Source of the DNA: Limisphaerales bacterium
GTDB taxonomy: Bacteria; Verrucomicrobiota; Verrucomicrobiia; Limisphaerales; UBA11358
Direction: 5' to 3'
Assembly: GCA_003161635.1 (NCBI GenBank)
Contig: PMOA01000050.1
Location: 3,091 to 67,090 of the forward strand
Length of the DNA stretch: 64,000 nucleotides
Position numbers and translations under genes: made by a program. Positions 3,141 through 64,000 of the stretch are shown piece by piece. The first letter of the stretch is position 1, and each line of letters begins with the position of its first letter. The notes under the pieces are model-generated. The model saw only the letters and a program-made list of their open reading frames with translations, made no database searches and had not been told where the DNA came from.

Positions 3141-4133
3141 TCAATTGGCGGTTGACGCTTGAACGCGCGGTTTGAGGGCTTCAATGCGCTGGCGCGCGGA
3201 CGCGGCGTAAGGCGAGTTTGGATCCAATTGCAGCACTTCGTTGTAATAAACCAGCGAGCCGTTCCATTTCTTGCTCTTTTCGTAGAATTGCGCGATTTCA
3301 AAATTACCGCGCACCTGTTCAGCCTTGAGCACGGCAATGGCTTTTTGCGCCTGCGGCACGCGCTTATCGTCGGGATAAAGCGTGATGAAATCAGTGAACG
3401 TCGCAATCGCCTGCACCGCGGTGTTTTGGTCGTATTCAGCTTTCGCCGCCTGCCGCGCATACGAAACGCTTTCACGGAACAGCGCGTCGGAGGCAATGGC
3501 CGGCAGGTTGTAGTAACGATCGGCGGCGGTGGCGTAAGCCTTCACCGCATCGGGATAATTTTTCTCCTTTTCGCGCGCAGCGCCGATGCGCAATTGCGCG
3601 TGCGCGGCGACGTCGCTGTAAGGGCCGTTGTTGACGACCTTGTCAAACATTTGCGCCGTTTGACTCATCGAGCGATACAGCGGGAGGTAACCCCAGAAGA
3701 TTCTGAACCGCTGGCCGCCGAGGAAACGGTTGGCGATTTCATACTGCCGCCAGAGCACTTCTTCATAGCGACTGCTGCGCGGATATTTTTCGATGATGTT
3801 TTGGTAGGCTTTGAATGCGGCTTCATCATTGCCTGTCGCCTCGAGGCAGCGGCCAATGAGATATTCCGCGTCCGGCGCGTAGTCTGACAACGGCCACACG
3901 CGCAAGACGCGGTGCGCGGCATGGAGCGTGGTGTTGTAGTCGTTCTTGGCGAAAGCCTGCTCCGCAACGTCCAATTGTTCCTTGGCACGGGTGCGCTGCC
4001 ACTTGGTGTTCTGGCCATACAGCTCGTAATACCAGCCTTCGCCCGGCACATAGAATAACGGCGCGGGCGCGCGAAACGGAAACAACACCACGGCCGCAGC
4101 GACCAGGAACAGGAAACCAAACCGGCGATTCAT
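3141..4133 (-). CDS. bamD: TPR-repeat outer-membrane assembly factor BamD/YfiO-like
   Basis: Hydrophobic N-terminus from ATG 4133 (MNRRFGFLFLVAAAVVL). Repeated TPR-like helices carry Y/W/A patterns (AEQAFAKNDYNTTL, AEYLIGRCLEATGNDEAAFKAYQNIIEKYP, NFEIAQFYEKSKKWNGSLVYYNEVL). It lies 1 nt upstream of the lptE-like gene. Confidence 0.6.
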   Translation of the reverse strand: MNRRFGFLFLVAAAVVLFPFRAPAPLFYVPGEGWYYELYGQNTKWQRTRAKEQLDVAEQAFAKNDYNTTLHAAHRVLRVWPLSDYAPDAEYLIGRCLEATGNDEAAFKAYQNIIEKYPRSSRYEEVLWRQYEIANRFLGGQRFRIFWGYLPLYRSMSQTAQMFDKVVNNGPYSDVAAHAQLRIGAAREKEKNYPDAVKAYATAADRYYNLPAIASDALFRESVSYARQAAKAEYDQNTAVQAIATFTDFITLYPDDKRVPQAQKAIAVLKAEQVRGNFEIAQFYEKSKKWNGSLVYYNEVLQLDPNSPYAASARQRIEALKPRVQASTAN

Positions 4134-4770: not shown

Positions 4771-6312
4771 TTACTCCCACTCGATCGTCCCCGGCGGCTT
4801 GCTGGTGATGTCAAACACACACCGATTCACGCCTTTGACTTCGTTGATGATGCGGCTGGCGAGTTTCTCCAGCAATGCGTAGGGCAGTTTCACCCAGTCT
4901 GCCGTCATGCCGTCCTGCGATTCCACCGCGCGGATGGCGATGGTGTAATCATAAGTCCGTTCGTCGCCCATCACGCCCACGCTGCGCACGGGCAGTAATA
5001 CCGCGAAGCTCTGCCAGATTTTGTAGTAAAGCCCATTCGACTTCATTTCCTCAACGACGATGGCGTCGGCGTTCCGCAAAATCGCGCAGCGCTCCGGCGT
5101 CACTTCACCGAGAATGCGCACGGCGAGTCCCGGTCCGGGAAACGGCTGGCGCAAAACAATTTCCTTCGGCAAGCCGAGTTCGAGCCCGAGCTGGCGCACC
5201 TCGTCCTTGAACAGGCATTTCAGCGGCTCAACGAGCGCGAATTTCATTTTCTTCGGCAGCCCGCCGACATTGTGATGGCTCTTGATGAGCGCGGCGGGAT
5301 TGCCGTCAATCGGCACGGACTCGATCACGTCGGGATAGAGCGTTCCTTGCGCGAGAAATTTCGTCTTGCCCGCATGCTGGGCCGCATTCTGAAAAACTTC
5401 GATGAACGTCTTGCCGATGATCTTCCGTTTGCGTTCGGGTTCGGTCACGCCTTTGAGCCGTTTCAAAAACAGCTTCGAGGCGTCTTCGTATTGCAGTTTG
5501 ATTTTGAAATTGCGCCCGAAAACTTCCTGCACGACTTCCGCCTCGCGTCCGCGCAACAGGCCGTTGTTGACGAAAATGCAGGTCAGTTGGTCGCCGATGG
5601 CTTTGTGCAGCAACGCCGCCGCCACGCTCGAATCCACGCCGCCACTCAAGCCGAGAATCACTTTTTCCGTCCCAACCTGGGTGCGGATTTCCTCGACGGC
5701 TCGCTCAACGTAATTCCGCATCGTCCAGTTTTTGCCACAGCCACAAACGCCGTGGACGAAATTGGCGATGATTTCCCTGCCGCGCGTTGTGTGGACGACT
5801 TCGGGATGAAATTGCAGGCCGAAAAATTTCCGCGCGCGGTTTTCGATGGCGGCGTATTCGGAGTTTTCGGTGACGGCGACGGATTTGAAATCGCGCGGCA
5901 GTTTCGTGAGCTTGTCGCCGTGCGAATTCCAGACCTGCAACTTTTCCGGCAGATTGCCGAACAGCGCGCACGACGCGTCCTTCACTGTGAGCACACCTTT
6001 GCCGTATTCGCGTTTCTGGCCTTTCTCGACCTTGCCGCCGAGAAACTGCGCGAACAATTGCACGCCGTAACAGATGCCGAGCACAGGCACGCCGAGCGCG
6101 AAAATATTCTTGTCCGACAACGGCGCATTTTTGGCATACACGCTGGACGGACCGCCGGACAAAATGATGCCACTGGGCGCCAGCGCGGCGATTTCCACCG
6201 CCGGAGTGTCGTGGCACAGAATGACGGAATACACGTTGCATTCGCGGATGCGCCGCGCAATCACCTGTGTGTATTGCGAACCAAAATCAAGGATGACAAT
6301 TTGTTCGGTCAT
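4771..6312 (-). CDS. guaA: GMP synthase (glutamine-hydrolysing)
   Basis: Full-length 513 aa. GATase domain ([27 protein letters not shown]), ATP-PPase SGGVDSS loop, and C-terminal KPPGTIEWE. Confidence 0.97.
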
Positions 6313-6950: not shown

Positions 6951-9026
6951 CTACGCCATTTTCGCCGCCAACTCGCGCGCCTGCAGGATCAAATCGAGAT
7001 CGTCAGCCAGATTGCCGAAACGGAATTTCGGCAAACCGCTTTGCTGCTGACCGAGCAACTCGCCCGGCCCGCGCAATTTCAAGTCCGTCTCCGCGATGCG
7101 AAAACCATCGTTCGTTTCCTCCAGCACTTTCAAGCGTTCATTCGCCCCGGCAGTTTCCGCGTCGGAAACCAAAATGCAATACGACTCATGTGCGCCGCGT
7201 CCGATGCGCCCGCGCAACTGGTGAAGTTGTGCCAGCCCGAACGCCTCGGCGTTTTCGACGAGCATGACCGTGGCGTTCGGCACATCCACGCCGACCTCGA
7301 TGAGCGAAGTCGCGAGCAATGCGTTCACCCCGCCGGCACGAAATTCCGTCATTACCTCGTCTTTTTCGCGGCTCTTTAATCGCCCGTGCAGCAACCCGAC
7401 GCGAAATGGCGCAAGCAAAGTTTTCAAATTTTCAAATTCTTCCGTCACCGCTTTCAAACCTTTCCCGCCCGATTCTTCGACGCGAGGATAAACCACATAA
7501 GCCTGTCGCCCGGCGGCGAGTTGTTCGCGGATAAACTCCCAAACCTTCGGCAATTTGTCAGCCGTGCGGATGAACGTTTTGATTTGGCCGCGGCCACCGG
7601 GCAATTCGTCAATCACCGACACCTCGAGGTCGCCGTAAAGCGTGAGGCCGAGCGTGCGCGGAATCGGCGTCGCCGTCATCACGAGCAAATGCGGATAACG
7701 ACCTTTGCGCACAAGCTGTTCGCGCTGTGCCACACCAAACTTGTGCTGCTCGTCAATGATGACCAGGCCCAGCTTCGGCAGATCAAAACCGGACTCAATG
7801 AGCGCGTGGGTGCCGATGAACAAGGTTGAAGGTTGCGTGTTGCGTGTTGCGTGATTCGCGCACGCCGTTCGTTGGACGTTGGACGTTCGATGTTCGATGT
7901 TCGATGTTTTCCTGTTCCCCGTTTGCAACTCGACTTTGACTTCCAGTGGTTCAAACCACCTCTGAAAATTGGTGTAGTGCTGTTCCGCCAGAATTTCCGT
8001 CGGGGCCATGAGCGCGACATTAAAGCCGCTTTCCAACGCCATCAGCGCCGTGCAAGCAGCCACGGCGGTTTTGCCCGAACCGACATCGCCTTGCAGCAAC
8101 CGCCGCATCGGATGCGCGCCGCCCATGTCCTTGCGGATTTCGCGCAGCACTTTCGTTTGCGCATCGGTAAGCTTGAAGCCGAGCCGGGCAAGAAACGGTT
8201 TGATGAGGCGATTGTTGCCGCCGCACGGCAGCGCCGCTGCGTGCGATTCAAATTTTTTCCGCCGCTTTTGGATTTGAACCTGCAATTCAATGAACTCGTC
8301 CAGCGCCAGCCGCCGGCGCGCAATTTCCACATCGGTCAGTTCTTCGGGGAAATGAATCATTCGAACCGCATTGGCGCGGCTTGGAAATGTAGCGGCGACT
8401 CGGGAGAGCGCCGCCATCTTTTCTTCCACTGCATTCCACTCAGGGAAATTGGCCGCGCTCTCACGAGACGCGGCTACAAACCTTTCCAGCGTGCGCCAGA
8501 TCAGCCCGCGCAGCCAGCGTTGCGGCAGGCCATCAGTGAGCGGATACACGGGCGCGATGCGGTTGATGTGGATGAAGCTTTCCTCGCCGCCTTCGATGAC
8601 TTCGGTTTCGGGATGAGTCATCACGCGCGGTTTGGTTTCGCTCAATTTGCCGTAAACAAAAACCTCGTCGCCCATGGCAAAATAATTTTGCATGAACGGC
8701 AGGTTCCACCAGCGGCAATGCAACCGCGCCGAGCCGTCGTCGAGAATGATTTCAAAAACAGACTTGTCGCCGCCGCGAAAACGCCTCAGGCCGGATGCGA
8801 CAATCGTGCCGCGCGCCGTGGCCGGTTCATCCTTCGTGAGTTCGGCGATTTTGCGGAAATGCCGGCGGTCTTCATAACGCCGCGGGCAGTGCAACAACAA
8901 ATCCTCGATGTTATGGATGTCGAGGCGCGCAAGTTGAGCCGCGCGTTCCGCGCCGACACCCCAGAGCGAACCCACCAGAGCGGCGAGCGGAGAAGTCTTG
9001 GATTCCGACGGCGACATTGGCCGCAC
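6951..9026 (-). CDS. recG: ATP-dependent DNA helicase RecG
   Basis: Wedge domain, GDVGSGKT (motif I), IIDEQHKFG (motif II), MTATPIPRT and QLHQLRGRIGRG (motif VI). The start is GTG 9026 or ATG 9017. The gene contains an in-frame repeat-encoded segment (see findings). Confidence 0.93.
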   Translation of the reverse strand: MRPMSPSESKTSPLAALVGSLWGVGAERAAQLARLDIHNIEDLLLHCPRRYEDRRHFRKIAELTKDEPATARGTIVASGLRRFRGGDKSVFEIILDDGSARLHCRWWNLPFMQNYFAMGDEVFVYGKLSETKPRVMTHPETEVIEGGEESFIHINRIAPVYPLTDGLPQRWLRGLIWRTLERFVAASRESAANFPEWNAVEEKMAALSRVAATFPSRANAVRMIHFPEELTDVEIARRRLALDEFIELQVQIQKRRKKFESHAAALPCGGNNRLIKPFLARLGFKLTDAQTKVLREIRKDMGGAHPMRRLLQGDVGSGKTAVAACTALMALESGFNVALMAPTEILAEQHYTNFQRWFEPLEVKVELQTGNRKTSNIEHRTSNVQRTACANHATRNTQPSTLFIGTHALIESGFDLPKLGLVIIDEQHKFGVAQREQLVRKGRYPHLLVMTATPIPRTLGLTLYGDLEVSVIDELPGGRGQIKTFIRTADKLPKVWEFIREQLAAGRQAYVVYPRVEESGGKGLKAVTEEFENLKTLLAPFRVGLLHGRLKSREKDEVMTEFRAGGVNALLATSLIEVGVDVPNATVMLVENAEAFGLAQLHQLRGRIGRGAHESYCILVSDAETAGANERLKVLEETNDGFRIAETDLKLRGPGELLGQQQSGLPKFRFGNLADDLDLILQARELAAKMA
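7825..7908. repeat. two heptanucleotide tandem arrays inside recG
   Basis: 7825-7852 holds GTTGAAG plus GTTGCGT x3. 7871-7905 holds GTTGGAC x2 plus GTTCGAT x3. An 18-nt spacer separates them. Confidence 0.9.
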
Positions 9027-29669: not shown

Positions 29670-29720
29670 TCGTAAATACAAATCAAGAAAATCTAACGAG
29701 CTATTTTCAAGAAACCGGGA

Positions 29721-38257: not shown

Positions 38258-39010
38258 TCAGTCCCAGACTCCCAGTTGGACGAGTTCCTTGGCCGCCGTT
38301 TTCGTCCAGTCGTGGCGGTTGGCTTTGGGGCTGGCCGGACTGGGATGCAGGATTTGCCCGACGCGAATCTTCGTGTTTTCACAAACCAATCGTCCGCGTT
38401 CCGCCGCGAAGCCGCCAATCCCAACCAACCATTCCGGCTGGAGAATTTCCAGGACGCGGCGCAAATGCTCGTCACAGATTTCAAACAGACGGTCGCGTTC
38501 GGCCCGGGGCAGTTTGTCGGGAGTTTGATTGCGACCGCTCGCTTCGCAGAATGCCAGCGGACAATAATTCGCCACGAAATGACCGGTAAAGAATCTTTCC
38601 GGCGAGTCAAAGCGTTCGGCGAAAAGTTTCCACAATCGCCGGCCGCTGACTTCGGAGCGCGGGCAATTAAAACCCAGGATGGGCCGTTTGGGATGTTCCG
38701 AACGGGGCCTTTCGATTCTGGCGCGAATGCCCAGCCAATCGCGCACGGCGGCAACTTCACCGAAGGGCACACCGGTTTGCACCATGCCGAACGGCCCGGG
38801 GTTCATTCCGAGAAACACCACCCGCTTCCGGCCGTTGCTGAACCGGCGCAAGTATTCCTCGTGCGCCTTCCACGCATAAGTCAGCGGATTATAGACGTGC
38901 GCGACGGGCGGCTGGAATTTCAAGCGACCGACTTGGGCCGAAAGCCTGCGAGCGGCGGCAATGAGACGTTTGCTGGTGGCAGAAAGTCGAGGTAACTCAG
39001 CTTTTCTCAT
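38258..39010 (-). CDS. SMUG1-family (family 3) uracil/5-hydroxymethyluracil DNA glycosylase
   Basis: FLGMNPGPFGMVQTGVPFGEVAAVRDWLGI and ILHPSPASPKANRHDW match the two SMUG1 signature motifs closely. Confidence 0.9.
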   Translation of the reverse strand: MRKAELPRLSATSKRLIAAARRLSAQVGRLKFQPPVAHVYNPLTYAWKAHEEYLRRFSNGRKRVVFLGMNPGPFGMVQTGVPFGEVAAVRDWLGIRARIERPRSEHPKRPILGFNCPRSEVSGRRLWKLFAERFDSPERFFTGHFVANYCPLAFCEASGRNQTPDKLPRAERDRLFEICDEHLRRVLEILQPEWLVGIGGFAAERGRLVCENTKIRVGQILHPSPASPKANRHDWTKTAAKELVQLGVWD

Positions 39011-39435
39011 GATGAGATTTCCGGCAAAATTTCGAGTGTCAGAGAATAATCTTTGTAACCAACCGCCCGCCAGAACGCGACCGCCGCTTCATTTTGAACC
39101 AAAACTTCAACCGTCAGCCGCTTATTTTTCGGCCAGATTTTTGAGCGCAGAATTTCCACGGCCTGACGGCCAATCCCCTGCCGGCGCCGGTTCCGGACGA
39201 CGGAAAGCTGCCGCAAATAAATCTCCTCCGGCTGCTCGCGATACAAAGCGTAAGCAACCACTTCACCGTCATTTTCAAAAAGCACCGCCGCGTATTCGGA
39301 CGCCAGCCAGCCTTTCATCCGCTGCTCCAGCTCAGGAACCGTCATGCGATTCCTGTGCCCTTCGTCACGAATCAACTGATGGTTGAGTTCCGCCAGCAGG
39401 GCACAATCGTTCAATGTTGCGCGCCGGAAGTTCAA
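39007..39435 (-). CDS. GNAT family N-acetyltransferase (copy 1)
   Basis: The RNRRRQGIGRQAVE acetyl-CoA (Q/R-x-x-G-x-G/A) motif. The TTG start overlaps the ORF6N stop (TTGA), and its own stop overlaps the SMUG1 start (ATGA). Confidence 0.85.
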   Translation of the reverse strand: MNFRRATLNDCALLAELNHQLIRDEGHRNRMTVPELEQRMKGWLASEYAAVLFENDGEVVAYALYREQPEEIYLRQLSVVRNRRRQGIGRQAVEILRSKIWPKNKRLTVEVLVQNEAAVAFWRAVGYKDYSLTLEILPEISS

Positions 39436-41959: not shown

Positions 41960-42077
41960 CCGGGTCCAACGCAAGGATGGAGCCTCCCGAACACCCCCGC
42001 CCGCACGGCCGGAATCGGGTCGGTTTCCCTCGTGGCGATGTGCAGGTTGTAGAGGCTCACGGGCGATTTGTGTCCGG
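41960..42077 (-). pseudogene. decayed fragment of the argG 3' region (remnant a)
   Basis: In the argG-like frame it reads [20 protein letters not shown], against arg[24 protein letters not shown] similarity to 44945-45063 is visible by eye. The boundary is at CCGG 42074-42077. Confidence 0.6.
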
Positions 42078-42488
42078 TAAAATTTCCAATGTCAAACAAT
42101 AATCTTTGTAGCCGACGGCCCGCCAGAACGCGACCGCCGCTTCATTTTGAACCAGAACTTCAACTGTCAGCCGCTTGTTTTTCGGCCAGATTTTTGAGCG
42201 CAGAATTTCCACGGCCTGCCGGCCAATCCCCTGCCGGCGCCGGTTCCGGGCGACGAAAAGTTGGCGCAAATAAATTTCCTCCGGCTGCTCGCGATACAAG
42301 GCGTAAGCCACCACTGCACCGTCATTTTCAAACAGCATCGCGGCGTATTCGGACGCCAGCCAGCCTTTCATCCGCTGCTCCAATTCGGGAACCGTCATGC
42401 GATTTCTGTGTCCCTCGTCGCGGATCAACTGATGATTGAGTTCAGCCAGCAGAGCGCCATCGTCCAACGTTGCTCGTCGAAAGGTCAT
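42057..42488 (-). CDS. GNAT family N-acetyltransferase (copy 2, chimeric 3' end)
   Basis: 9 substitutions against copy 1 over the first 137 aa. The last 6 codons and the stop are read out of frame from the argG-derived fragment. Confidence 0.8.
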   Translation of the reverse strand: MTFRRATLDDGALLAELNHQLIRDEGHRNRMTVPELEQRMKGWLASEYAAMLFENDGAVVAYALYREQPEEIYLRQLFVARNRRRQGIGRQAVEILRSKIWPKNKRLTVEVLVQNEAAVAFWRAVGYKDYCLTLEILPDTNRP

Positions 42489-43693: not shown

Positions 43694-43826
43694 TTATTTC
43701 TTCTTCCCGTGCACCAGCGCCGCGATCCCGCTTGCGGGACGTAGCGCGTTGAGCCGGATGAAGCCGGTGGCGCGCCCTGGTTGTGGTCCGCACGGGCGGG
43801 ATCGGTTCGGTTTCCATCATGGCAAT
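43694..43826 (-). pseudogene. decayed duplicate of the argG 3' end including its stop (remnant b)
   Basis: TTATTTCTTCTTC...GCGTTGAGCCGGATGAAGCC...CCTGGTTGT...GGTTTCCATCATGGCAAT is collinear with 44886-45001 (TTATTTCTTCTTC...GCGTTTAACCGGATGAAGCC...CCTGGTTGT...GGCTTCCATCGTGGCAAT). Confidence 0.8.
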
Positions 43827-43870
43827 CAGCAAACTCCCGTTCTCCCTTTCTGGCAAGGCCAATCGCAAAT

Positions 43871-44885: not shown

Positions 44886-46112
44886 TTATTTCTTCTTCTG
44901 CACCTTCGCCGCGACTTTCAGGCGCAGGGCGTTTAACCGGATGAAGCCAGTCGCGTCGTCCTGGTTGTAAGCCTTTGTAGGATCGGCTTCCATCGTGGCA
45001 ATGTGCGGATTGTAGAGGCTCACCGGACTCTTGCGGCCGGCGACCATGATGTTGCCTTTGTACAGTTTCACGCGCACGGTGCCGGTCACGTTCTTCTGGC
45101 TCTCGGTCACGAGCGCCTGCAACGCATACCGTTCCGGCGCGAACCAGTAACCGTAATAAACCAGCTCCGCGTAACGCGGAATCAGCGAGTCCCGCAGGTG
45201 CATGACCTCCCGGTCCATGGTGAGGCTTTCCATCTGCCGATGCGCAAAGTGCAGGATGGCGCCGCCGGGCGTTTCATACACGCCCCGCGATTTCATGCCC
45301 ACGTACCGGTTCTCCACCATGTCCACCCGCCCGACACCGTGTTTGCCGCCGATTTTATTCAGCGTCTTCATCACGCCGAGCGGGGAAAGGGTCTTTCCAT
45401 TCACTGCAACGGCGTTGCCTTTCTTGAAGTCAATCGTCACGAATTCCGGTTTGTTCGGCGCGTCTTCGGGAAACACCGATAGCGTGGTGAACGAGCCGCG
45501 AAACTTTTTGTCGCTCGCATCCATCCACGGGTCTTCGAGAATGCCCGCCTCGTAGGAAATGTGCAGCAGGTTCCGGTCGCTCGAGAACGGTTTCCTGGCG
45601 CTGGCCTGGACGGGAATCCTGTGCCGGGCGCAGTAATCAATCATCTCCTGCCGGCCGGGAAAGTCGGTGCGAAATGAAGCGTCCCGCCACGGGACGATGA
45701 CCTGCAAGTCCGGCGCGAGCGCGGCGGCGGTGAGTTCAAACCGCACCTGGTCGTTGCCTTTGCCGGTGGCGCCGTGCGCGATGGCGTCGGCCTTTTCCTT
45801 TTTGGCGATTTCCACCATGCGTTTGGCGATGAGCGGCCGGGCGATGCTGGTGCCGAGGAAATACTGGCCCTCATAGACCGCGCCGGCCTGGATGATGGGG
45901 TAGATGAAATCGCGGGCGAACTCCTCCTGCAAATCGTCAATGTAGATTTTGGACGCGCCGGTTTTCTTCGCCTTGGCTTCGAGGCCGCGGAGTTCCTCCT
46001 CCTGGCCGATGTTGGCGCAGAAGGCGATCATCTCGGCGTCGTAGGTTTCCTTGATCCACGAAAGCAGCACCGACGTGTCGAGGCCGCCCGAGTAAGCTAA
46101 AACAATTTTCAT
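44886..46112 (-). CDS. argG: argininosuccinate synthase
   Basis: [26 protein letters not shown], and the SxD.NLLHISYE region. 408 aa. Confidence 0.97.
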
Positions 46113-56144: not shown

Positions 56145-56597
56145 ATGGAACCGAAAGCACTTGCGGGCCTGATCCAGACCATCATCGCGGCGGTTGAGAA
56201 ACGAGTCCCGGAATATCTGGCGGTCGAGGCGGACCGGAAACTCAATGACGGCAACAGCGCTCTTTGCATCGTGGATGAAGCCGGGGGAGTATACGGAAAA
56301 ATGTTCGGCACCGACAAAGTCCGGCAGCGACAATGCTTCCGCATCGCCTGGATCAAGGCGAGCCAGGTCTGGATCACCGGTTATAAGACGGGCGAGTATG
56401 AAACACTGGTGTTTGCGGGCAAAGTTGACGAGAAACGGTACGGCATCATCCGACCGGACTTCATCGGTTGGGAAGGCGGCCAACCAATTGCCGTAGACGG
56501 TCAAACAAAGTTGTCCGTCGGTTTCAGTGGTTTTCGCGGCACCAGCGACCTGGAGATAGTCCAAAAGGCCGTTGCCGACGTGACGGGCCGGAAGTGA
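56145..56597 (+). CDS. GlcG/HbpS-like (DUF336) protein
   Basis: GGQPIAVDGQTKLSVGFSGFRGTSDLEIVQKAV resembles the GG.PI...G..IGAIGVSG...D motif of DUF336. Confidence 0.65.
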   Translation: MEPKALAGLIQTIIAAVEKRVPEYLAVEADRKLNDGNSALCIVDEAGGVYGKMFGTDKVRQRQCFRIAWIKASQVWITGYKTGEYETLVFAGKVDEKRYGIIRPDFIGWEGGQPIAVDGQTKLSVGFSGFRGTSDLEIVQKAVADVTGRK

Positions 56598-56744: not shown

Positions 56745-58670
56745 ATGTCCACCATCCTGACTGCCACTGAACTGACCGTGCGCTACGGCGAGCACGCGGT
56801 GCTCGACCGCGCGACGCTCGCCATTGATGAGGGCGACCGCATCGGACTGGTCGGGCGCAACGGCTGCGGCAAGACGACGTTCGTCCGCATTCTGGCCGGG
56901 CTGCAATCGCCGGACAGCGGCAACGTCACGCGGCGGCGCGAGCTCGTTGTCAGCTACCTGCCGCAGGACTTCATGCTCGACGAGGCGAAGAACGTTCTTG
57001 AAAACATCCGTGACGGTGCGAAGCCGGTGCTCGATTTGATTGCGGAATTTGAATCGCTGCCCGCCGAATCGAAGCGGCATGAGCACTTGGAACATCGCAT
57101 CGCCGCGCTGGAAGGCTGGACGCTGGACCGGCGCATCGAGACCGCGATGTCGCACCTGAATTGTCCCTTCGGCGACCGGCGCATTGACACACTTTCCGGC
57201 GGCGAGAAACGGCGCGTGGCGATGTGCCGCGCCCTGGTTTCGCAGCCTGACCTCCTGATCCTCGACGAGCCGACGAACCATCTAGACCCGGAATCCATCG
57301 AGTGGGTCGCGGAATTTCTCGACGAGTTCCATGGCTCGTTCCTCGTCGTCACGCATGACCGCTACTTTCTCGACCGCGTGGCGAAGCGCATGGTCGAGTT
57401 GTCCGATGGCCGGTTTTTCTGGCACGACGGCAACTATACCGATTACCTGCTGGACAAAGCCGAACGTCAGGCCGCGGACGCGACCGTCGAGCACAAGCGC
57501 CAGATGTTTCTGAAAAAGGAACTGGCCTGGGTGCGACAAGGCCCGCGGGCGCAGCGCAGCAAACAGAAGGACCGTTTCGAGCGTTACTACGATACGGCCG
57601 CGCAGGACGGGCCGGTGATTGAAGAGGAAGTCGAGCTTTGCATCCCGCCGCCGCCGCAACTGGGCAACCGCGTTGTCGAGTTGAGCAATCTCGGCATGGA
57701 CCTCGGCGGGCGCACGTTGTTTCGCGGATTCAATTTCACGTTCGAGAACGGCCAGCGCATCGGCGTCGCCGGGCGGAACGGTCTGGGCAAGACCACGTTG
57801 CTCAAAATCATCATCGGCCAGCTTGCGCCCACGGAGGGGACGGTGAAGACCGGCCAGCTCACGAAGTTCAATTACGTGGACCAGGGCCGGATTCAATTGC
57901 GAGAGGAACGCACGGCGCTGGAGGAGGTCAGCGACGGCACGGAATTTGTCATCTTCGGCGACGGCAAAATTTCGCTGCGCTCCTATCTCAAGCGGTTTTT
58001 GTTCGCCGACGATCGCATCACGACGCAGGTGAAATATCTGAGCGGCGGCGAGCGCAGCCGGCTGTTGCTCGCGCGCATCCTGAAAAACGGCGGCAACTTT
58101 CTGATTCTCGACGAACCGACGAACGATCTCGACCTGCCGACGTTGCGCGTGCTGGAGGAGGCGTTGATCGCGTTCCCCGGTGTCGTGCTCGTGGTGAGCC
58201 ACGACCGCTATTTTCTCAACCGCGTTTGCACCGACGTGCTGGCGTTCGAAGGCGACGGCAAAATCCATCACAGCGTTGGCGACTACGATTATTACCTGGA
58301 AAAGAAACAACGTGCGCTCGTAGCCGCGTCTCGTGAGAGCGCGGCCATTCTCGCAACCAACAAGTCTTCCGCACTCTCACGAGCTGCGGCTACGAAGGCG
58401 ACGAAGACAGCGAAACCGGCCAAACCCCGCAAACTTTCGTTCAAAGAAGCGCGCGAGCTGGAAGGCATGGAGGCGCAAATCCACGGCGTGGATGCGGAAA
58501 TCGTCCGCATCGAAGGCTTGTTCGCCTCGCCGGATTTTCACCGCACGCACGCCACCCAAACCAATCAGCTCACCGCCGACCTCGCCGCCGCGAAGGAAAA
58601 CCTCGCGAAACTCTACGCGCGCTGGGAGGAGTTGGAGGCGATCAAGGCCGCAGCGAAACGGCTCGGCTAA
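56745..58670 (+). CDS. ABC-F family ATPase (Uup-like, C-terminal coiled coil)
   Basis: Two ABC cassettes (GRNGCGKTT / LSGGEKRR / LILDEPTNHLD and GRNGLGKTT / LSGGERSR / LILDEPTNDLD), no TM domain, and a C-terminal helical tail. Confidence 0.95.
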   Translation: MSTILTATELTVRYGEHAVLDRATLAIDEGDRIGLVGRNGCGKTTFVRILAGLQSPDSGNVTRRRELVVSYLPQDFMLDEAKNVLENIRDGAKPVLDLIAEFESLPAESKRHEHLEHRIAALEGWTLDRRIETAMSHLNCPFGDRRIDTLSGGEKRRVAMCRALVSQPDLLILDEPTNHLDPESIEWVAEFLDEFHGSFLVVTHDRYFLDRVAKRMVELSDGRFFWHDGNYTDYLLDKAERQAADATVEHKRQMFLKKELAWVRQGPRAQRSKQKDRFERYYDTAAQDGPVIEEEVELCIPPPPQLGNRVVELSNLGMDLGGRTLFRGFNFTFENGQRIGVAGRNGLGKTTLLKIIIGQLAPTEGTVKTGQLTKFNYVDQGRIQLREERTALEEVSDGTEFVIFGDGKISLRSYLKRFLFADDRITTQVKYLSGGERSRLLLARILKNGGNFLILDEPTNDLDLPTLRVLEEALIAFPGVVLVVSHDRYFLNRVCTDVLAFEGDGKIHHSVGDYDYYLEKKQRALVAASRESAAILATNKSSALSRAAATKATKTAKPAKPRKLSFKEARELEGMEAQIHGVDAEIVRIEGLFASPDFHRTHATQTNQLTADLAAAKENLAKLYARWEELEAIKAAAKRLG

Positions 58671-58724
58671 AGCACATACGCTCCTGCCGTGCGCCGGCCT
58701 GCCCCTTAACCTTGTTTAATCCTC

Positions 58725-58920
58725 TAGGGCGTATTTTCAAAATGAGAAATTTTGGACTGCGGCGGCAAGCGGAGCGCGACGCCGCTTTGGAAAACGATCG
58801 CACCCTGATTCACCCGGCGAAAGCGCTGTCGTCGCTGTGCTTTGCCAGCGCAGTCCAAATGCTGTCGCCCTTGCCGCGCAACCTTTTCCGGCGGCAAGCT
58901 GATTTTGAAAACACGCCCTA
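58725..58920. mobile_element. MITE-like element with 19-bp terminal inverted repeats
   Basis: TAGGGCGTATTTTCAAAAT ... ATTTTGAAAACACGCCCTA (18/19 complementary). A second internal IR is TTGGACTGCG / CGCAGTCCAAA. No ORF. Confidence 0.7.
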
Positions 58921-58977
58921 ATTACCGTCCTCCCCCTTGCGGCTTGATTCTTTCCAAAGTAATGCTAGGCTTACCGC

Positions 58978-59301
58978 ATGATTGCCAACGTATCAGTCAA
59001 AGGACAGATGGTCATTCCCGAAGCCATCCGCGAACAGGCGCGGATCAAAACCGGCGACCAGCTGGATGTCGGTTACACCAACGGGCTGATTGTCCTGCGG
59101 AAACGCCGGGCATTGACCCCGGCCCGGGTGCGGTCGCTGCTGCTGGCCGGACGCGAGCTTCCCGAAATGACCCCGGCGGATGAAACTGCCGTCGCCCGCG
59201 CCGTGCAACAGGTGAGAAACCGCATAAAAGGCCTAGAGCCTCACGTGGCAAGCCACGTAAAAGACCTTCAGTCTCACGCGGCAAGCCGCCGCAAACAGTG
59301 A
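58978..59301 (+). CDS. AbrB/MazE/SpoVT-type antitoxin
   Basis: VSVKGQMVIPEAIREQARIKTGDQLDV swapped-hairpin motif. Its 3' end overlaps the toxin start by 4 nt. Confidence 0.8.
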   Translation: MIANVSVKGQMVIPEAIREQARIKTGDQLDVGYTNGLIVLRKRRALTPARVRSLLLAGRELPEMTPADETAVARAVQQVRNRIKGLEPHVASHVKDLQSHAASRRKQ

Positions 59302-59705
59302 AAGTGGTTTTCGACACTAACGTGGTGGCCAGCGCGAGTTTCTGGCGCGGCGCGCCTTTTGACTGTCTGGCGGCATGGGCACAAGGCCGCTGCGAAGCCG
59401 TGGTCAGCCCCGCGATGCTGGCCGAGTATCACGAAACCATCGAGGAACTTCGGCTGGAATATCCCCGGCGCGAGCCGGTCGAATGGGTTGACGCCCTGAC
59501 CGAATCGGCGGAATTGATTTTCCCCACGGAACGCGCCACGGGGGCGACGCCGGATCCCGGTGATGAAATGGTTCTGGAATGTGCCTTAGCGGCGGAAGCG
59601 GATCACATCGTAAGCGGCGACAAAAAACATCTGCTGTCGCTCCGGGAATTTCACGGCATCCGAATCGTCTCCTCGTCGGATTTTCTGCGTCGTCTGGCGA
59701 TCTGA
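59298..59705 (+). CDS. PIN-domain toxin (TIGR00305-like)
   Basis: KVVFDTNVV (first acidic residue), DEMVLECA, and IVSGDKKHLL. Confidence 0.9.
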   Translation: MKVVFDTNVVASASFWRGAPFDCLAAWAQGRCEAVVSPAMLAEYHETIEELRLEYPRREPVEWVDALTESAELIFPTERATGATPDPGDEMVLECALAAEADHIVSGDKKHLLSLREFHGIRIVSSSDFLRRLAI

Positions 59706-59719
59706 AACAATCAATGAAA

Positions 59720-59836
59720 GCAACGCAAACCAGCCAGCTCAATGCCGACCTCGCCGCCGCAAAGGAAAACCTCGCAAAACTCTGCGCGCGCTGGGAAGAG
59801 TTAGAAGCGATCAAGGCCGCGGCGGAGAAGCAGTAG
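59720..59836 (+). pseudogene. displaced duplicate of the ABC-F gene 3' end
   Basis: Encodes ATQTSQLNADLAAAKENLAKLCARWEELEAIKAAAEKQ*, against ATQTNQLTADLAAAKENLAKLYARWEELEAIKAAAKRLG* at 58551-58670. I counted about 11 mismatches in the first ~100 nt. Confidence 0.8.
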
Positions 59837-59944
59837 GGTGAAGGATTACACGCTTCAGCCTGTCTTTGTAAGTGGCTTTCGTTAAATTTGTAACGACATA
59901 TTGTTCCTCGGTCTGGAATGGTTGGGAGCAGCATTGCCCGGAAA

Positions 59945-60006
59945 GTGTGAATATTTCGCACTTTTATGTTGACGCCTTGGTTTTAATGTGCGACAAAGTC
60001 ACACAT
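59945..60006. promoter_or_regulatory. two related dyads upstream of / overlapping the BlaI-family gene start (candidate operators)
   Basis: GTGTGAA-TAT-TTCGCAC (59945-59961) and ATGTGCGAC-AAA-GTCACACAT (59986-60006, which includes ATG 60005). The shared pattern is GTGYGA-N-TCRCAC. Confidence 0.35.
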
Positions 60007-60388
60007 GCGAGCGACATCTTTGAATCAGAACGAGCTGGAGGCTTTGAGAATCCTTTGGGAGGGGGGCGAACTGAAGCCCGCCCATATTCAGAGCCGTTTT
60101 TCCTGGCCCATTGAAAACGCAACCTTGCGCTCAGTTCTCGTCAACTTGGTGGAAAAAGGGCACATCATCCGGAAGCTTCATGGCAAAGCATTTTTCTACG
60201 GCGCGTGCGCCAAAAAAACGACCCTGCTCCAAAACATGCTCCAGACGATGGCGCGGGTTTTTGCCGGAGGTTCGAGCCGGGAACTGGTCGCCCAGTTGGT
60301 GGAGACCGGGGACATCAAACCCGAGGACTTGGAACTGATCCGCCGCACCACGGCTGAAACCATCTCACGAAAAACAAAAAGGAAATAG
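60005..60388 (+). CDS. BlaI/MecI/CopY family transcriptional repressor
   Basis: LNQNELEALRILWEGGELKPAHIQSRF...TLRSVLVNLVEKGHIIRKLHGKAFFY winged-helix pattern. Confidence 0.9.
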   Translation: MRATSLNQNELEALRILWEGGELKPAHIQSRFSWPIENATLRSVLVNLVEKGHIIRKLHGKAFFYGACAKKTTLLQNMLQTMARVFAGGSSRELVAQLVETGDIKPEDLELIRRTTAETISRKTKRK

Positions 60389-60390
60389 CT

Positions 60391-62469
60391 ATGAAAACAC
60401 TGCTCGATCTCTCTCAGTCGCCGGTTTTTGTGATCCTCTGGAAGTGGACCGTCCTGCTCGTGCTTGGATGGACGGCTCATGGGCTGCTTCGCTCCCGGGA
60501 TGCCCGGTGGCGGCTGATCCTCTGGCGCGGTGTTTTCTGTTTTGGGCTGGCCCTGCCACTCATACAGTTTCTCCCGCTGCCGGTGTTTCAGATCCCGGTT
60601 CATGACTTTGCCGAGATCGTCCCGGCAACACCAAGTGTGGCTGCGCCGAGCCTGGCGGAGGCTACTATTCCGCCTGGGACGGCGCGGTCGGTTGCGCCTG
60701 TGGTGGTAGAGGCGGCGAAGGACGGCGCGGCGGTCAATGGGGTTCATCGTCCAGCGGGCAGCTTTTTTTCGACGATTTCATTGAATGGCTTGCTGATCAC
60801 CATCTGGGCCACTGGTGCCCTTTGGGGAGCGCTTCGCCTGGTGCGCTTTATGATCCAACTCTCCACTTTGAAGAGATCTGCGATCCCGGCTGCTCCAGCC
60901 ATCCAAGTGCTGGCCGGGGAGATTTTGCAGCGATTGCGGATCAAGCGTTTCGTTCGAGTGCTGGTTTCGGATTCGGCTGTTTCGCCGTTTGTTTCCGGAG
61001 TCATTCAGCCTGCCATCATGCTGCCTGGAAAACTGGCGCAAAGCCTGTCTTCCGAGGAAATGGCGGCGCTGTTGGGACATGAAATTGCGCATCTGCGCCG
61101 GCACGATTTGCTCTGGTGTGCCGGTTGGCGGTGGATGAAGGCGCTTTTTTGGTTCCACCCCCTGGTTTGGAAAGTTCCCGAGGTCCACAGTTTGGCGTGC
61201 GAGGAGGAAGCCGACAGTGTGGCTTCCTCTCAAACGGAAAATCGCGCTTCCTATGCGCACCTGTTGGCCCAGATCACTCTTCGCGTGCTGGCCGTTCCAG
61301 AAATGGAAACCCAACTCGCCGTCAACGGAACGGCACAGATCACCCATCGGTTGCGCCGCTTGGGAAAGGAACTGGGAATCTGGAAACCAACGCATTCCTT
61401 GGCCGCGTTTGGGCTGGTATTGGCGATGGCCTTGATTTCAGCGGGGTGCAACGTGACCGGAGAGAAAGATACCCAGGAAGTGAAGCAATTGAAGGCACAG
61501 GTGGCGGCTTTGGAGAAGAGGATAAGTGAAATGCAGAATTCATTGCAACCGGTGGAAAGACAGCGTGCCTTTCGTGAGAAATTCGAGCGACGCAGCGAAC
61601 TGGACCAAAAGAAATATACCCAGGAGCAATTGATGGAAGCGGAGAAGCTGTATATGGTTGCCAACCAGAAATGGGGCTCCCCTGAAGTGGTCGAGAGTCT
61701 TCAGACAATGATCAAAAAGTATCCCGACATTAACCGCACAGGTTGCGCAACGCTGTATCTTGCCCAGCTATCCCAAGGCGATGAGAGCGCCAAGTATCTC
61801 CAGGACTGTATTGAGAAATACAACGATTGCTATTATGGCGACGGCGTCCAAGTCGGAGCCTACGCGCGGTTTCTGCTGGCCGAGAATTACCGGAGCAAGG
61901 GCGAAAAGGAAAAGGCGGAGGCGTTGTGCAAGGAAATCAAGGATAACTATTCAGATTCGATAGACCACCGCGGTCAACTCTTAATCAATCTCATACCGAC
62001 AAAATCTCAAGCGGAGCAGCAGGCAAGGCAACGTGCCTATCGCGAGAAATTTGACCGCCGCCGCGAATTGGACCTAAAGAAGTACACCCAGGAGCAATTG
62101 ACGGAAGCAGAGAACATGTACACGGCGGCGGAGAGCAAGTTGAGATCACCGGAGTCCATTGAGAGCGTAAATCAAATGTTACAGAAATTCCCCGATGCAA
62201 ACCGAACCGGGTGCATCCTCCTCGAGTTAGCGCAAACCACAACTGGACCGGAAATCGAGAAATATTTCAAAGACTGTATTGAGAAATACAACGATTGTTA
62301 TTATGGCGACGGAGTCCAGGTTGGACCCTTTGCACGGTTTTGGTTGGCGGATTACTACAGCAAAACCAAGGAGATTGAGAAAGTGGCGGCGTTGTACAAG
62401 GAAATCAAGGACAACTATTCAGATGCGATAGACCACAACGGTCAACTCTTAATCACTCTCATAAAATAG
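60391..62469 (+). CDS. BlaR1-type M56 peptidase signal transducer with duplicated C-terminal helical module
   Basis: N-terminal TM helices, HEIAHLRRHD (HExxH), a further TM helix, a coiled coil, then two ~150-aa repeats. Confidence 0.9.
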   Translation: MKTLLDLSQSPVFVILWKWTVLLVLGWTAHGLLRSRDARWRLILWRGVFCFGLALPLIQFLPLPVFQIPVHDFAEIVPATPSVAAPSLAEATIPPGTARSVAPVVVEAAKDGAAVNGVHRPAGSFFSTISLNGLLITIWATGALWGALRLVRFMIQLSTLKRSAIPAAPAIQVLAGEILQRLRIKRFVRVLVSDSAVSPFVSGVIQPAIMLPGKLAQSLSSEEMAALLGHEIAHLRRHDLLWCAGWRWMKALFWFHPLVWKVPEVHSLACEEEADSVASSQTENRASYAHLLAQITLRVLAVPEMETQLAVNGTAQITHRLRRLGKELGIWKPTHSLAAFGLVLAMALISAGCNVTGEKDTQEVKQLKAQVAALEKRISEMQNSLQPVERQRAFREKFERRSELDQKKYTQEQLMEAEKLYMVANQKWGSPEVVESLQTMIKKYPDINRTGCATLYLAQLSQGDESAKYLQDCIEKYNDCYYGDGVQVGAYARFLLAENYRSKGEKEKAEALCKEIKDNYSDSIDHRGQLLINLIPTKSQAEQQARQRAYREKFDRRRELDLKKYTQEQLTEAENMYTAAESKLRSPESIESVNQMLQKFPDANRTGCILLELAQTTTGPEIEKYFKDCIEKYNDCYYGDGVQVGPFARFWLADYYSKTKEIEKVAALYKEIKDNYSDAIDHNGQLLITLIK

Positions 62470-62527: not shown

Positions 62528-64000
62528 GTGCCGGCCACGTTATATGATCTGATTCCGCGGGATGAGAAGCCCGGCAATGATGTCTTGCTGGGGCGCTTTC
62601 TGGATTACGTGGAAGGCCGGCGGCTGCAACTTTATCCCGCCCAGGAATCGGCCATCCTGGCGTTGTTCGAGGAGAAGAACGTCATCCTGAACACGCCCAC
62701 CGGGTCGGGCAAATCGCTCGTGGCCACGGCGCTGCACTTCCAGGCCGTCGCCCAGGGCCGACGCTCCATTTACACCTGCCCGATCAAGGCGTTGGTGAAT
62801 GAAAAGTTCATGGCCCTCTGCCGCGAGTTCGGTCCCGACAACGTTGGCCTCAGCACCGGCGACGCTTCGGTCAATCGTGACGCGCCCATCCTCTGCTGCA
62901 CCGCGGAAATCCTCGCCAACATCGCGCTGCGCGAAGGCGCGCAGGCCAACGTGCAGGAGGTCGTCATGGACGAATTCCATTACTACGCCGATCGCGAGCG
63001 CGGTGTGGCGTGGCAGGTTCCACTGTTGACGCTGCCGCAGGCGCGGTTTCTCCTGATGTCCGCGACGCTGGGCGACACGACGTTTTTCGAGGAGGAACTC
63101 ACGCGGCTCAACCGGCGGCCGACGGTTGCGATCTCGTCCACGGACCGGCCGGTTCCGCTGGAACATGCCTATTCGGAGTTGTCGCTGGCCAAGACGCTGG
63201 AAAGCCTCGCCGCCGAGGGCAAGGCGCCCGTGTATGTGGTCCACTTTACGCAACTGGAGGCCGCGCAGAGCGCGCAGGATTTCACGAGCATCAACGTCTG
63301 CACCCGTGAGGAGAAAGCCACGCTGGCCAACGCACTCGAAGGATTCAAGTTCAGCAGCCCATACGGTCCCGACATTAAAAAGTGGCTGCGGCACGGCATC
63401 GGCTTGCATCATGCCGGTTTGCTGCCGAAGTATCGCGTGTTGATCGAGCAGCTTGCGCAGAAGGGTTTGCTAAAAATCATCTGCGGCACGGACACCCTCG
63501 GGGTGGGCATCAACGTGCCGATTCGCACGGTGCTGTTCACGCGGCTGTGCAAGTACGACGGACAAAAGACCGGCATCCTGAGCGCGCGCGACTTTCACCA
63601 GATTGCCGGCCGGGCCGGGCGCAAGGGCTTCGATGATCGCGGCTGGGTGGTGGCGCAGGCGCCGGAGCACACGATAGAAAACCTGAAGCTCGCGGAAAAA
63701 TCCGCGCGGGACGGAAAGAAAACCGTGAAGCGCCAGCCGCCGGAAAAGAATTTTGTTAACTGGGACAAGAACACCTTCACGCGTTTGATTGCCGCGCCGC
63801 CGGAGCGCCTTATCTCGCGATTCCAAGTGACGCACGGGATGTTGCTGAATGTGCTGAGCCGGAAAGGCGACGGATGCCGGGCGATGCAAGACCTCATTGC
63901 GCGCTGTCATGAATCGCCGCGGCAGAAGCAGGCGCACATCAAACGCGCCTGGCAACTGTTCCGCTCACTGCTGGACCGGAAGATTGTCGAGTTTATCGAA
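62528..64000 (+). CDS. DEAD/DEAH-box (Ski2-like, DUF3516-type) helicase, N-terminal 491 codons (continues past the window)
   Basis: Absent from the ORF track because it has no stop in the window. The frame is open from the TAG at 62513 to base 64000, and the first start is GTG 62528. Motifs: NTPTGSGKS (I), MDEFHYY (II), MSATLG (III), [12 protein letters not shown] (V) and [10 protein letters not shown] (VI). Confidence 0.9.

Follow-up and report, generated by a model that had tools for sequence, protein, structure and literature searches.

The window analysed here is the whole 64,000-nt stretch of contig PMOA01000050.1 from a Limisphaerales bacterium. In it, the 3' end of an Uup-like ABC-F gene is found twice, once in the intact gene and once as a displaced fragment on the far side of a toxin-antitoxin (TA) cassette. 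The two copies are different alleles of the ABC-F tail and do not represent a fresh in-place duplication. The reading that we favour, at about even chances of being right, is that the window is a fusion of two alternative haplotypes, A and B, through an illegitimate joint, with a scar like those left by homology-facilitated illegitimate recombination (HFIR). The locus is a new, well-documented example of an already known kind of recombination scar.

The end of the ABC-F gene is present twice

The ABC-F gene (56745-58670, plus strand) is intact and encodes a 641-aa protein matching Pfam ABC_tran (twice), ABC_tran_Xtn and ABC_tran_CTD. All features of the class are present, namely two ABC domains, an inter-domain linker, a C-terminal coiled-coil domain and no transmembrane part, and EttA and Uup are the nearest NCBIfam models. 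The nearest genomes are metagenome-assembled genomes (MAGs) of Verrucomicrobiota/Limisphaerales, in which orthologues share 51-93% aa identity. Copy 1 of the tail, the last 40 codons of the gene (58551-58670, plus strand), ends with AAAKRLG*, and with it ABC_tran_CTD, which spans amino acids 563-631, is complete.

As proposed in the original prediction, made from the sequence of the window, this end recurs at 59720-59836. Positions 58551-58655 and 59720-59824 form a 105-nt ungapped direct repeat with 88% identity and, when one 3-nt indel is allowed, the similarity extends to both stops (58670 and 59836). The mismatches, first estimated at about 11 in the first ~100 nt, number 13 in 105 nt. Copy 2 was correctly described as being in frame to its own stop: it is a 40-aa ORF (59714-59836, plus strand) with an ATG start, homologous to the gene from 59720 and ending with AAAEKQ*, which was called by gene finders in independent assemblies. 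The pair is the sole repeat of more than 40 nt in the local 5 kb. An assembly artefact was ruled out as its source, because positions 58400-60100 are 100% identical in six independent metagenome contigs (L001-L006; the loci used for comparison are designated by L numbers).

An inverted repeat with 27-nt arms, 89% complementary, lies inside the ABC-F gene at 58318-58395, where the linker preceding the C-terminal domain is encoded. A search for Rfam-type RNA families in 58300-60100 returned only sub-threshold miRNA-like matches, to this coding hairpin.

The two copies are different alleles of the tail

Third codon positions hold 10 of the 13 differences between the copies and first positions none (P = 0.0016). 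Of the seven sites at which copy 1 departs from the gene of L105, six are in the L105 state in copy 2. Copy 2 and the in-gene tail of L105 are 92-93% identical and have the same tail end (GAGAAGCAGTAG); in L105 a homologue of the spacer that follows copy 2 in the window lies within about 45 nt after the tail. Copy 1, for its part, agrees with L089 in four derived states at synonymous sites and in an unusual ending, ...RL(G/D)*. The two tail ends are different natural types, each known from other genomes. The tail end matching the L105 gene, together with the nearby spacer homologue, indicates that the copies are different tail alleles, and since the tail is followed by the BlaI upstream spacer in relatives devoid of TA, copy 2 is the BlaI-linked tail type. 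Aligning the copies, which had been suggested as a way to decide which is ancestral, thus assigns copy 1 to the L089 type and copy 2 to the BlaI-linked type; it does not tell which of the two came in.

A left edge of imported DNA at 58551 was not supported: the identity profile of ABC-F has no breakpoint at this position and the whole gene is uniformly nearest to L089 (93.1%, against about 90% for the others). A breakpoint inside ABC-F, with a 5' part like L105 and a 3' part like L089, was also looked for and none was found.

Both proposed parental haplotypes and the empty site are known in relatives

The right flank is a DEAD/DUF3516 helicase gene, the 5' part of which lies at 62528-64000 (plus strand). 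In L021 the helicase starts 55 nt after the ABC-F stop. This adjacency is ancestral, and the window carries ~3.85 kb of extra DNA between the two genes. The gene prfC is directly upstream of ABC-F in most relatives.

The sister lineage L089-L091 has the order prfC, ABC-F, a post-stop motif, a miniature inverted-repeat transposable element (MITE), TA, a different palindromic element and the helicase. It is 92-96% identical to the window in prfC, ABC-F, MITE, TA and helicase (95% in prfC, 93% in ABC-F, 94% in the MITE, 93-96% in TA and 94% in the helicase), which is genome-typical, and has neither copy 2 nor BlaI/BlaR1, nor a 150-aa gene found upstream of ABC-F in the window. As L089-L091 carry ABC-F, MITE and TA, the MITE and the TA are older than the split from the window lineage and were inherited vertically here. 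This arrangement, a complete ABC-F followed by the motif, the MITE where present and the AbrB/PIN TA, would be haplotype A.

Haplotype B, ABC-F followed by the spacer, BlaI and BlaR1, was recovered by a scan for BlaI relatives. L105 and L106 have a full-length ABC-F, then the spacer and BlaI/BlaR1, without TA, so that the proposed comparison with relatives did yield an empty site. L096 is consistent with it within the limits of its contig, which starts inside ABC-F (3' 341 codons) and continues with the spacer and BlaI, again without TA. In L098 a Phd/Doc pair stands between ABC-F and the spacer/BlaI. The spacer of the window, which is the BlaI upstream region (59837-60004, plus strand), is 76-94% identical in L096-L112 and starts about 45 nt past the stops of the full-length ABC-F genes of L105 and L106; the 19 nt with which it starts after copy 2 recur unchanged immediately behind the ABC-F 3' fragments of L103 and L110. 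It leads into the second cargo of the interval (60005-62469, plus strand), a BlaI-type repressor (60005-60388; Pfam Penicillinase_R) and a BlaR1/M56 sensor-protease (60391-62469; Peptidase_M56). Many relatives have both genes, and L089 and L021 have neither. Identity in the helicase was uninformative for the direction of transfer, L089, L096, L102 and L110 all being 92-96% identical to the window.

The 150-aa gene (56145-56597), which separates prfC from ABC-F, has a weak HbpS-like match; L105 carries it, L089 and most relatives do not. It is a variable insert as well, on the opposite side of ABC-F.

The TA cassette has a constant boundary and junction S recurs

The description of the DNA between the two copies, a 196-bp MITE-like element and an AbrB/PIN pair with a 4-nt overlap, was borne out by terminal inverted repeats and by Pfam. 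The TA cassette as defined by homology covers 58936-59698 (plus strand) and includes a presumed promoter region. The antitoxin (58978-59301) matches MazE_antitoxin/AbrB (E = 5e-8, 33.2 bits for a cut-off of 24.7) and the toxin (59298-59705) matches PIN_3 (E = 2e-18, 67.8 bits for a cut-off of 27); NCBIfam TIGR01439 and TIGR00305 also pass. The antitoxin comes first, co-oriented with the toxin, and the genes overlap by 4 nt (GTGA). Judging from the sequence, this type II module is ordinary, seems intact and has an upstream region of its own; gene order, overlap and Pfam matches are those of VapBC-like systems, and nothing in it is unusual. Between the window and L104 the toxin is 97% identical at the aa level and 92% at the nt level, which suggests that it is under purifying selection. 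Its homologues fall into more than 120 protein clusters at 79-98% identity.

The cassette recurs in four or more genomic contexts, at 89-94% nt identity and with a common left boundary (CTTGYGGCTTGATTC): after ABC-F (window, L089), after BlaR1 or a truncated BlaR1 (L104, L109, L176-180), beside a tRNA-Leu gene (L092-95) and beside YfhO (L181-184). In L104 and L176-180 the order is TA, junction S, ABC-F tail, with no upstream tail and no MITE. The tail found together with the TA in different genomes is the downstream one, and not an upstream surrogate end as had been proposed.

Junction S (59699-59719, plus strand; GATCTGAAACAATCAATGAAAGCA) joins the TA side to about codon 598 of ABC-F and holds both the PIN stop and the ATG of the 40-aa ORF. 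It is common to the window, L104 and L176, and the L104 version (…AACCAACGCACGCC) is the nearest to ABC-F (CACCGCACGCACGCC); the ATG is missing from the L104 and L176 versions. The homology between L089 and the window ends at 59709, so that the first 10 nt of S are kept in L089. Right after these 10 nt, at the place of copy 2, L089 has a second hairpin MITE-like element (5408-5600) with ends CCCCAATTCCGAAGCTTGCC and GGCAACTTCGGTTTTCGGG.

In L007, from the same species, a 29-nt deletion flanked by a 6-nt repeat affects the antitoxin (3896-3901, corresponding to window 59154-59176). It produces a frameshift leading to a 232-aa antitoxin-toxin fusion ORF; the TA is decaying in this contig, or the assembly is wrong there.

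The MITE is a separate insertion

The MITE (58725-58920, element proper 58727-58918) is 196 bp long, is flanked by a duplicated 5'-TA-3' dinucleotide and has 22-nt terminal inverted repeats with two mismatches, as well as nested inverted repeats. It folds as a single long hairpin (-59.2 kcal/mol, z = -7.9), encodes no transposase, and its internal ORF has no Pfam match. Terminal repeats, target duplication, hairpin fold and lack of a transposase are as in IS630/Tc1-type MITEs, although a single locus was seen. No second copy was found in the 64-kb window and, among 184 loci compared, only the orthologous site in L089-91 and a partial match in L046 were detected.

The post-stop spacer with the left part of a ~47-nt motif (58671-58726, plus strand; GCCGGC..CCCCTTAACCTTGTTTAATCCTCTA) becomes continuous with 58921-58931 once the MITE is removed. 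Removal of the MITE and of one dinucleotide restores the motif, 40 of 47 positions aligning across the excision point, and the uninterrupted motif in L092 and L181-184 represents the empty site of the MITE. The MITE is thus a separate insertion at a 5'-TA-3' dinucleotide within the motif, and not a part of the inserted unit as had been thought. The window holds no other copy of the motif. Its homologues lie after the stop of a 109-aa ORF in L182 and downstream of the TA in L092 and L181.

In L181-L184 (e.g. L182 537-2252 and 5443-5483) the motif follows the stop of the 109-aa ORF, which adjoins a rolling-circle Rep (REP_ORF2-G2P), and two direct copies of the motif flank YfhO and the TA. In L092 (3918-4090) what comes after the TA is a 3' remnant of this ORF (29 codons), full-length in L182, and then the motif. 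We rejected the possibility that L092 is a circular permutation, with a diverged ABC-F tail behind its TA: local alignments with six tails gave z values of -0.5 to 3.1, which are not significant.

The ABC-F-to-helicase interval carries many different scars

Displaced 3' fragments of ABC-F start at no fewer than six different left joints. Those near codon 546 (L110, L103) and near codon 603 (tail t1 of L104, L100) are preceded by a response-regulator context and that near codon 552 (L101) by MacAB-like genes. The joint near codon 598 (window, tail t2 of L104, tail t1 of L176) follows PIN, that near codon 600 (tail t2 of L176) a ParE-type TA and that near codon 612 (L102, L110) BlaR1. The downstream flank is affected as well. 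In L098 and L099 the upstream region and the first ~20 codons of the helicase are duplicated (105 nt; L098 3759-3863), in L098 beside Phd/Doc with BlaI/BlaR1 and through a joint with a 3-nt microhomology, TTG, common to both parents; in L176 a 73-nt piece of the helicase head (8841-8913) is duplicated beside a PIN TA. The cargo comprises AbrB/PIN, Doc-type and ParE-type TAs, BlaI/BlaR1, MITEs and a 395-aa ORF, in varying orders. L104 and L176 carry whole arrays in the order tail, BlaI/BlaR1, TA, tail, ParDE, tail.

The proposal that a TA cassette had been inserted at the ABC-F end holds in so far as the locus is derived and a site empty of the TA exists (L105, L106, L096). The further idea of an end-replacing cargo unit is only partly supported: the multiple left joints and the helicase-head duplications form a generic pattern of homologous and illegitimate recombination at a hotspot, and not that of a unit built to bring a replacement end.

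ORFs restricted to the ABC-F C-terminal domain (~90 aa, with ATG) occur upstream of BlaI in L110 (807-1073), L103 (~108-374) and L101 (3454-3825), where they follow unrelated genes, either a response regulator or MacAB-like genes. We considered whether the 40-aa ORF of the window is an internal deletion of the L110-type ORF, both starting with MKAT. Their upstream flanks are unrelated, and the likeness is due to an internal repeat in ABC-F (TKAT / THAT).

A proposed fusion of two haplotypes

The comparison shows the arrangements themselves, the empty site, the recurrence of the junction, the multiple breakpoints and that the copies are alleles; from these we infer an HFIR-like mechanism, its direction and a role of the remnants as anchors. 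The interval between ABC-F and the helicase would be a recombination hotspot in Limisphaerales-like Verrucomicrobiota, with a cargo that differs by lineage. One side of the exchange may have been ordinary homologous recombination within a flank that is conserved; the other would be an illegitimate joint, S (about 59699-59719), connecting the DNA after PIN to codon ~598 of a second ABC-F allele. Because both haplotypes hold an ABC-F tail, and the joint would lie after it in A and before it in B, the tail is present twice. The upstream copy would stay under selection as the real gene end and the downstream copy would be a displaced scar, ABC-F being preserved since gene-breaking recombinants are presumably lost, and not since the cargo is built to repair it. 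Tail remnants could also act as additional homology anchors, which would explain the arrays of L104 and L176. Neither ABC-F, which has no discontinuity at 58551, nor the helicase, which is equally near to L089 and to BlaI-bearing relatives, tells whether the incomer was tail 1 with the TA or tail 2 with BlaI/BlaR1; in both cases the "surrogate end" is simply that of the other allele.

Several observations weigh against this reading. A and B were not seen segregating within the species, all the contigs read that encode the exact ABC-F protein having the fused form. The sharp left boundary of the TA is identical in four contexts, and the motif lies upstream of the TA in the window and downstream of it in L092 and L181; the constant boundary and the position of the motif could point to an intermediate that is dedicated or circular. 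TAs with a tail remnant are paraphyletic in the TA tree, so that secondary losses or further recombination are required. Similar gene-end copies at the argG locus, in the same 64 kb (see below), could point to a systematic mechanism.

Alternative explanations

A Campbell-type integration, a RecA version of the original proposal that we consider unlikely, would start from a circle composed of S, an ABC-F tail with its stop, the motif and the TA, integrated by a single homologous crossover in the resident tail, providing the gene with a surrogate end and pushing the resident end downstream. As with suicide plasmids, such an event with a 3'-end fragment yields one full gene with the incoming end, the cargo and one 5'-truncated resident copy, which is what is observed. 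The order TA, S, type 1 tail, stop in L104 and L176 and the order tail 1, stop, motif, TA in the window and L089 are circular permutations of each other, and the proximity of the motif to a rolling-circle Rep in L181-184 makes a circular replicon plausible as a source. However, no circle, vector or replicon carrying an ABC-F tail was found; the natural occurrence of such an event is only inferred. In L092 the TA is followed by the remnant of the 109-aa ORF, the likeness to an ABC-F tail (z at most 3) not being significant. This one unit would account neither for the many other joints nor for the helicase heads duplicated beside other cargo, and the end structure is indistinguishable from the product of a haplotype fusion.

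Site-specific integration seems to us quite improbable. It would involve an integrase element with the ABC-F 3' end in its attP, accretion and later loss of the integrase, leaving cassettes similar to cis-mobilizable elements (CIMEs). Integration at the 3' end of protein genes with gene-restoring repeats is well documented, as for ICESt1/3 at fda, SGI1 at trmE and mobilizable genomic islands at yicC, and so are accretion, TA cargo and decay to CIMEs (PMC5704250). The window locus resembles such islands in that direct repeats include the gene 3' end and the gene stays intact; its arrays are tandem as theirs are, TA modules are common cargo of such islands and integrase-less cassettes can persist. 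The cassette arrays separated by tail copies in L104 and L176 fit this scheme, and the empty site of L105 resembles a precise attB. On the other hand, no recombinase was found among the called genes within ±6 kb of the window locus, nor was an integrase or its remnant in the tail-array and BlaI-linked loci examined; the integrase of L092 sits beyond the tRNA-Leu gene, on the far side. The events differ in where the repeats are bounded (at least six joints), a duplicated 5' head is also seen for the downstream gene, and the repeats, 75-270 nt long, are 78-93% alike, compared with the usual 8-60 bp of near-identity. The Phd/Doc cargo of L098 lies after ABC-F without any tail repeat.

It appears very improbable that copy 2 has a function, whether as a coiled-coil peptide of 40 aa that stems from the C-terminal domain of ABC-F or as an element regulating BlaI. 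The ATG, the intact frame, the gene-finder calls and the mostly synonymous differences from copy 1 are in agreement with such a function, as are the ATG-initiated ORFs of ~90 aa upstream of BlaI in L110 and L103. However, the ATG derives from ACG in the window lineage only, and the equivalent tail remnants elsewhere have no ATG (L104 and L176 junctions), a frameshift (tail t2 of L176) or a lost stop (L100, tail t1 of L104, L101), so that the 40-aa ORF is not conserved. Compared with L105, copy 2 has three second-position changes, an enrichment that includes the replacement of Tyr by Cys in the conserved LYARW, whereas functional tails have none; constraint on copy 2 is relaxed. The synonymous bias is accounted for by the divergence of functional alleles before displacement, and counts of promoter and terminator motifs in 58300-60100 were at chance level.

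An in-place tandem duplication of the gene end, followed by cargo insertion and neutral decay of the second copy, is the simplest route to a direct repeat and would fit the relaxed constraint on copy 2, but it is scarcely credible, since the copies have no lineage-specific substitutions in common, their third-position differences are like those of orthologues from different lineages, and their ends are two natural tail types, each found in other genomes.

Comparison with known scars and significance

One-ended homologous recombination coupled to illegitimate recombination, leaving displaced 3' ends, has been described, and orphan 3' ends in type VI secretion system (T6SS), rhs and contact-dependent inhibition (CDI) loci have been attributed to HFIR (PMC5361080). 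That paper cites Jackson 2009 (PMC2935791) for the displacement of rhs C-terminal ends, and de Vries & Wackernagel 2002 and Prudhomme 2002 (PMC122324, PMC122325) for HFIR. As in the rhs, CDI and T6SS cases, on the haplotype-fusion reading the incoming DNA and the resident gene have a conserved anchor in common, the 3' end of the resident gene is displaced downstream, where it persists as a partly homologous fragment adjoining foreign cargo, and repeated events build arrays without a dedicated recombinase. In contrast to these systems, the gene of the window is a housekeeping ABC-F and not a polymorphic toxin, its new end encodes the same function without diversification, the cargo consists of TA modules and BlaI/BlaR1, and the downstream flank gene also leaves duplicated heads.

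To our knowledge, the entry of small modules such as TA pairs in the absence of a visible mobility gene is poorly documented outside model organisms. The locus offers a well-resolved natural series in uncultured peat Verrucomicrobiota, with the empty site, both parents, the fused form and arrays. It suggests that conserved flanking genes can serve as recombination anchors, with duplicated gene ends as scars, and a search of whole genomes for these scars could serve to trace past one-ended recombination. It also calls for caution, an in-frame copy of a gene end beside cargo being, taken alone, no proof of a replacement-end element. A broader and rather doubtful proposal sees portable homology anchors in the displaced ends of core genes (tails of ABC-F, heads of the helicase, perhaps tails of argG), which integrase-free cassettes would use, in an integron-like manner, at many core-gene borders of Limisphaerales. 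If this were true, cassettes such as TA, BlaI/BlaR1 and others could be added, swapped and stacked in arrays by general recombination alone.

Other repeats in the window

Within BlaR1, positions 61783-61995 and 62251-62463 form an internal 213-nt repeat (79%) in the C-terminal part, which is the most variable region of the gene among relatives (69-97% nt identity).

The argG-proximal gene-end copies to which the original prediction had likened the ABC-F locus do exist. Partial copies of the argG 3' end lie at 42001-42077, 43740-43831 and 44923-45040 (argG itself is at 44886-46112 on the minus strand), downstream of two ORFs of 314 and 279 aa without Pfam match. An exact-protein look-up for variant argG contexts retrieved no other species and no other structure. 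Two full-length GNAT acetyltransferase genes (39007-39435 and 42057-42488; 92% nt identity) flank LamG-domain and ORF6N genes, and this pair may be the same kind of anchor duplication. A dispersed family of ~84-nt intergenic repeats (core GGCGACAAAGATTCCGC) is also present in the argG-proximal region, at 29693, 40359, 40604, 42741 and 43865.

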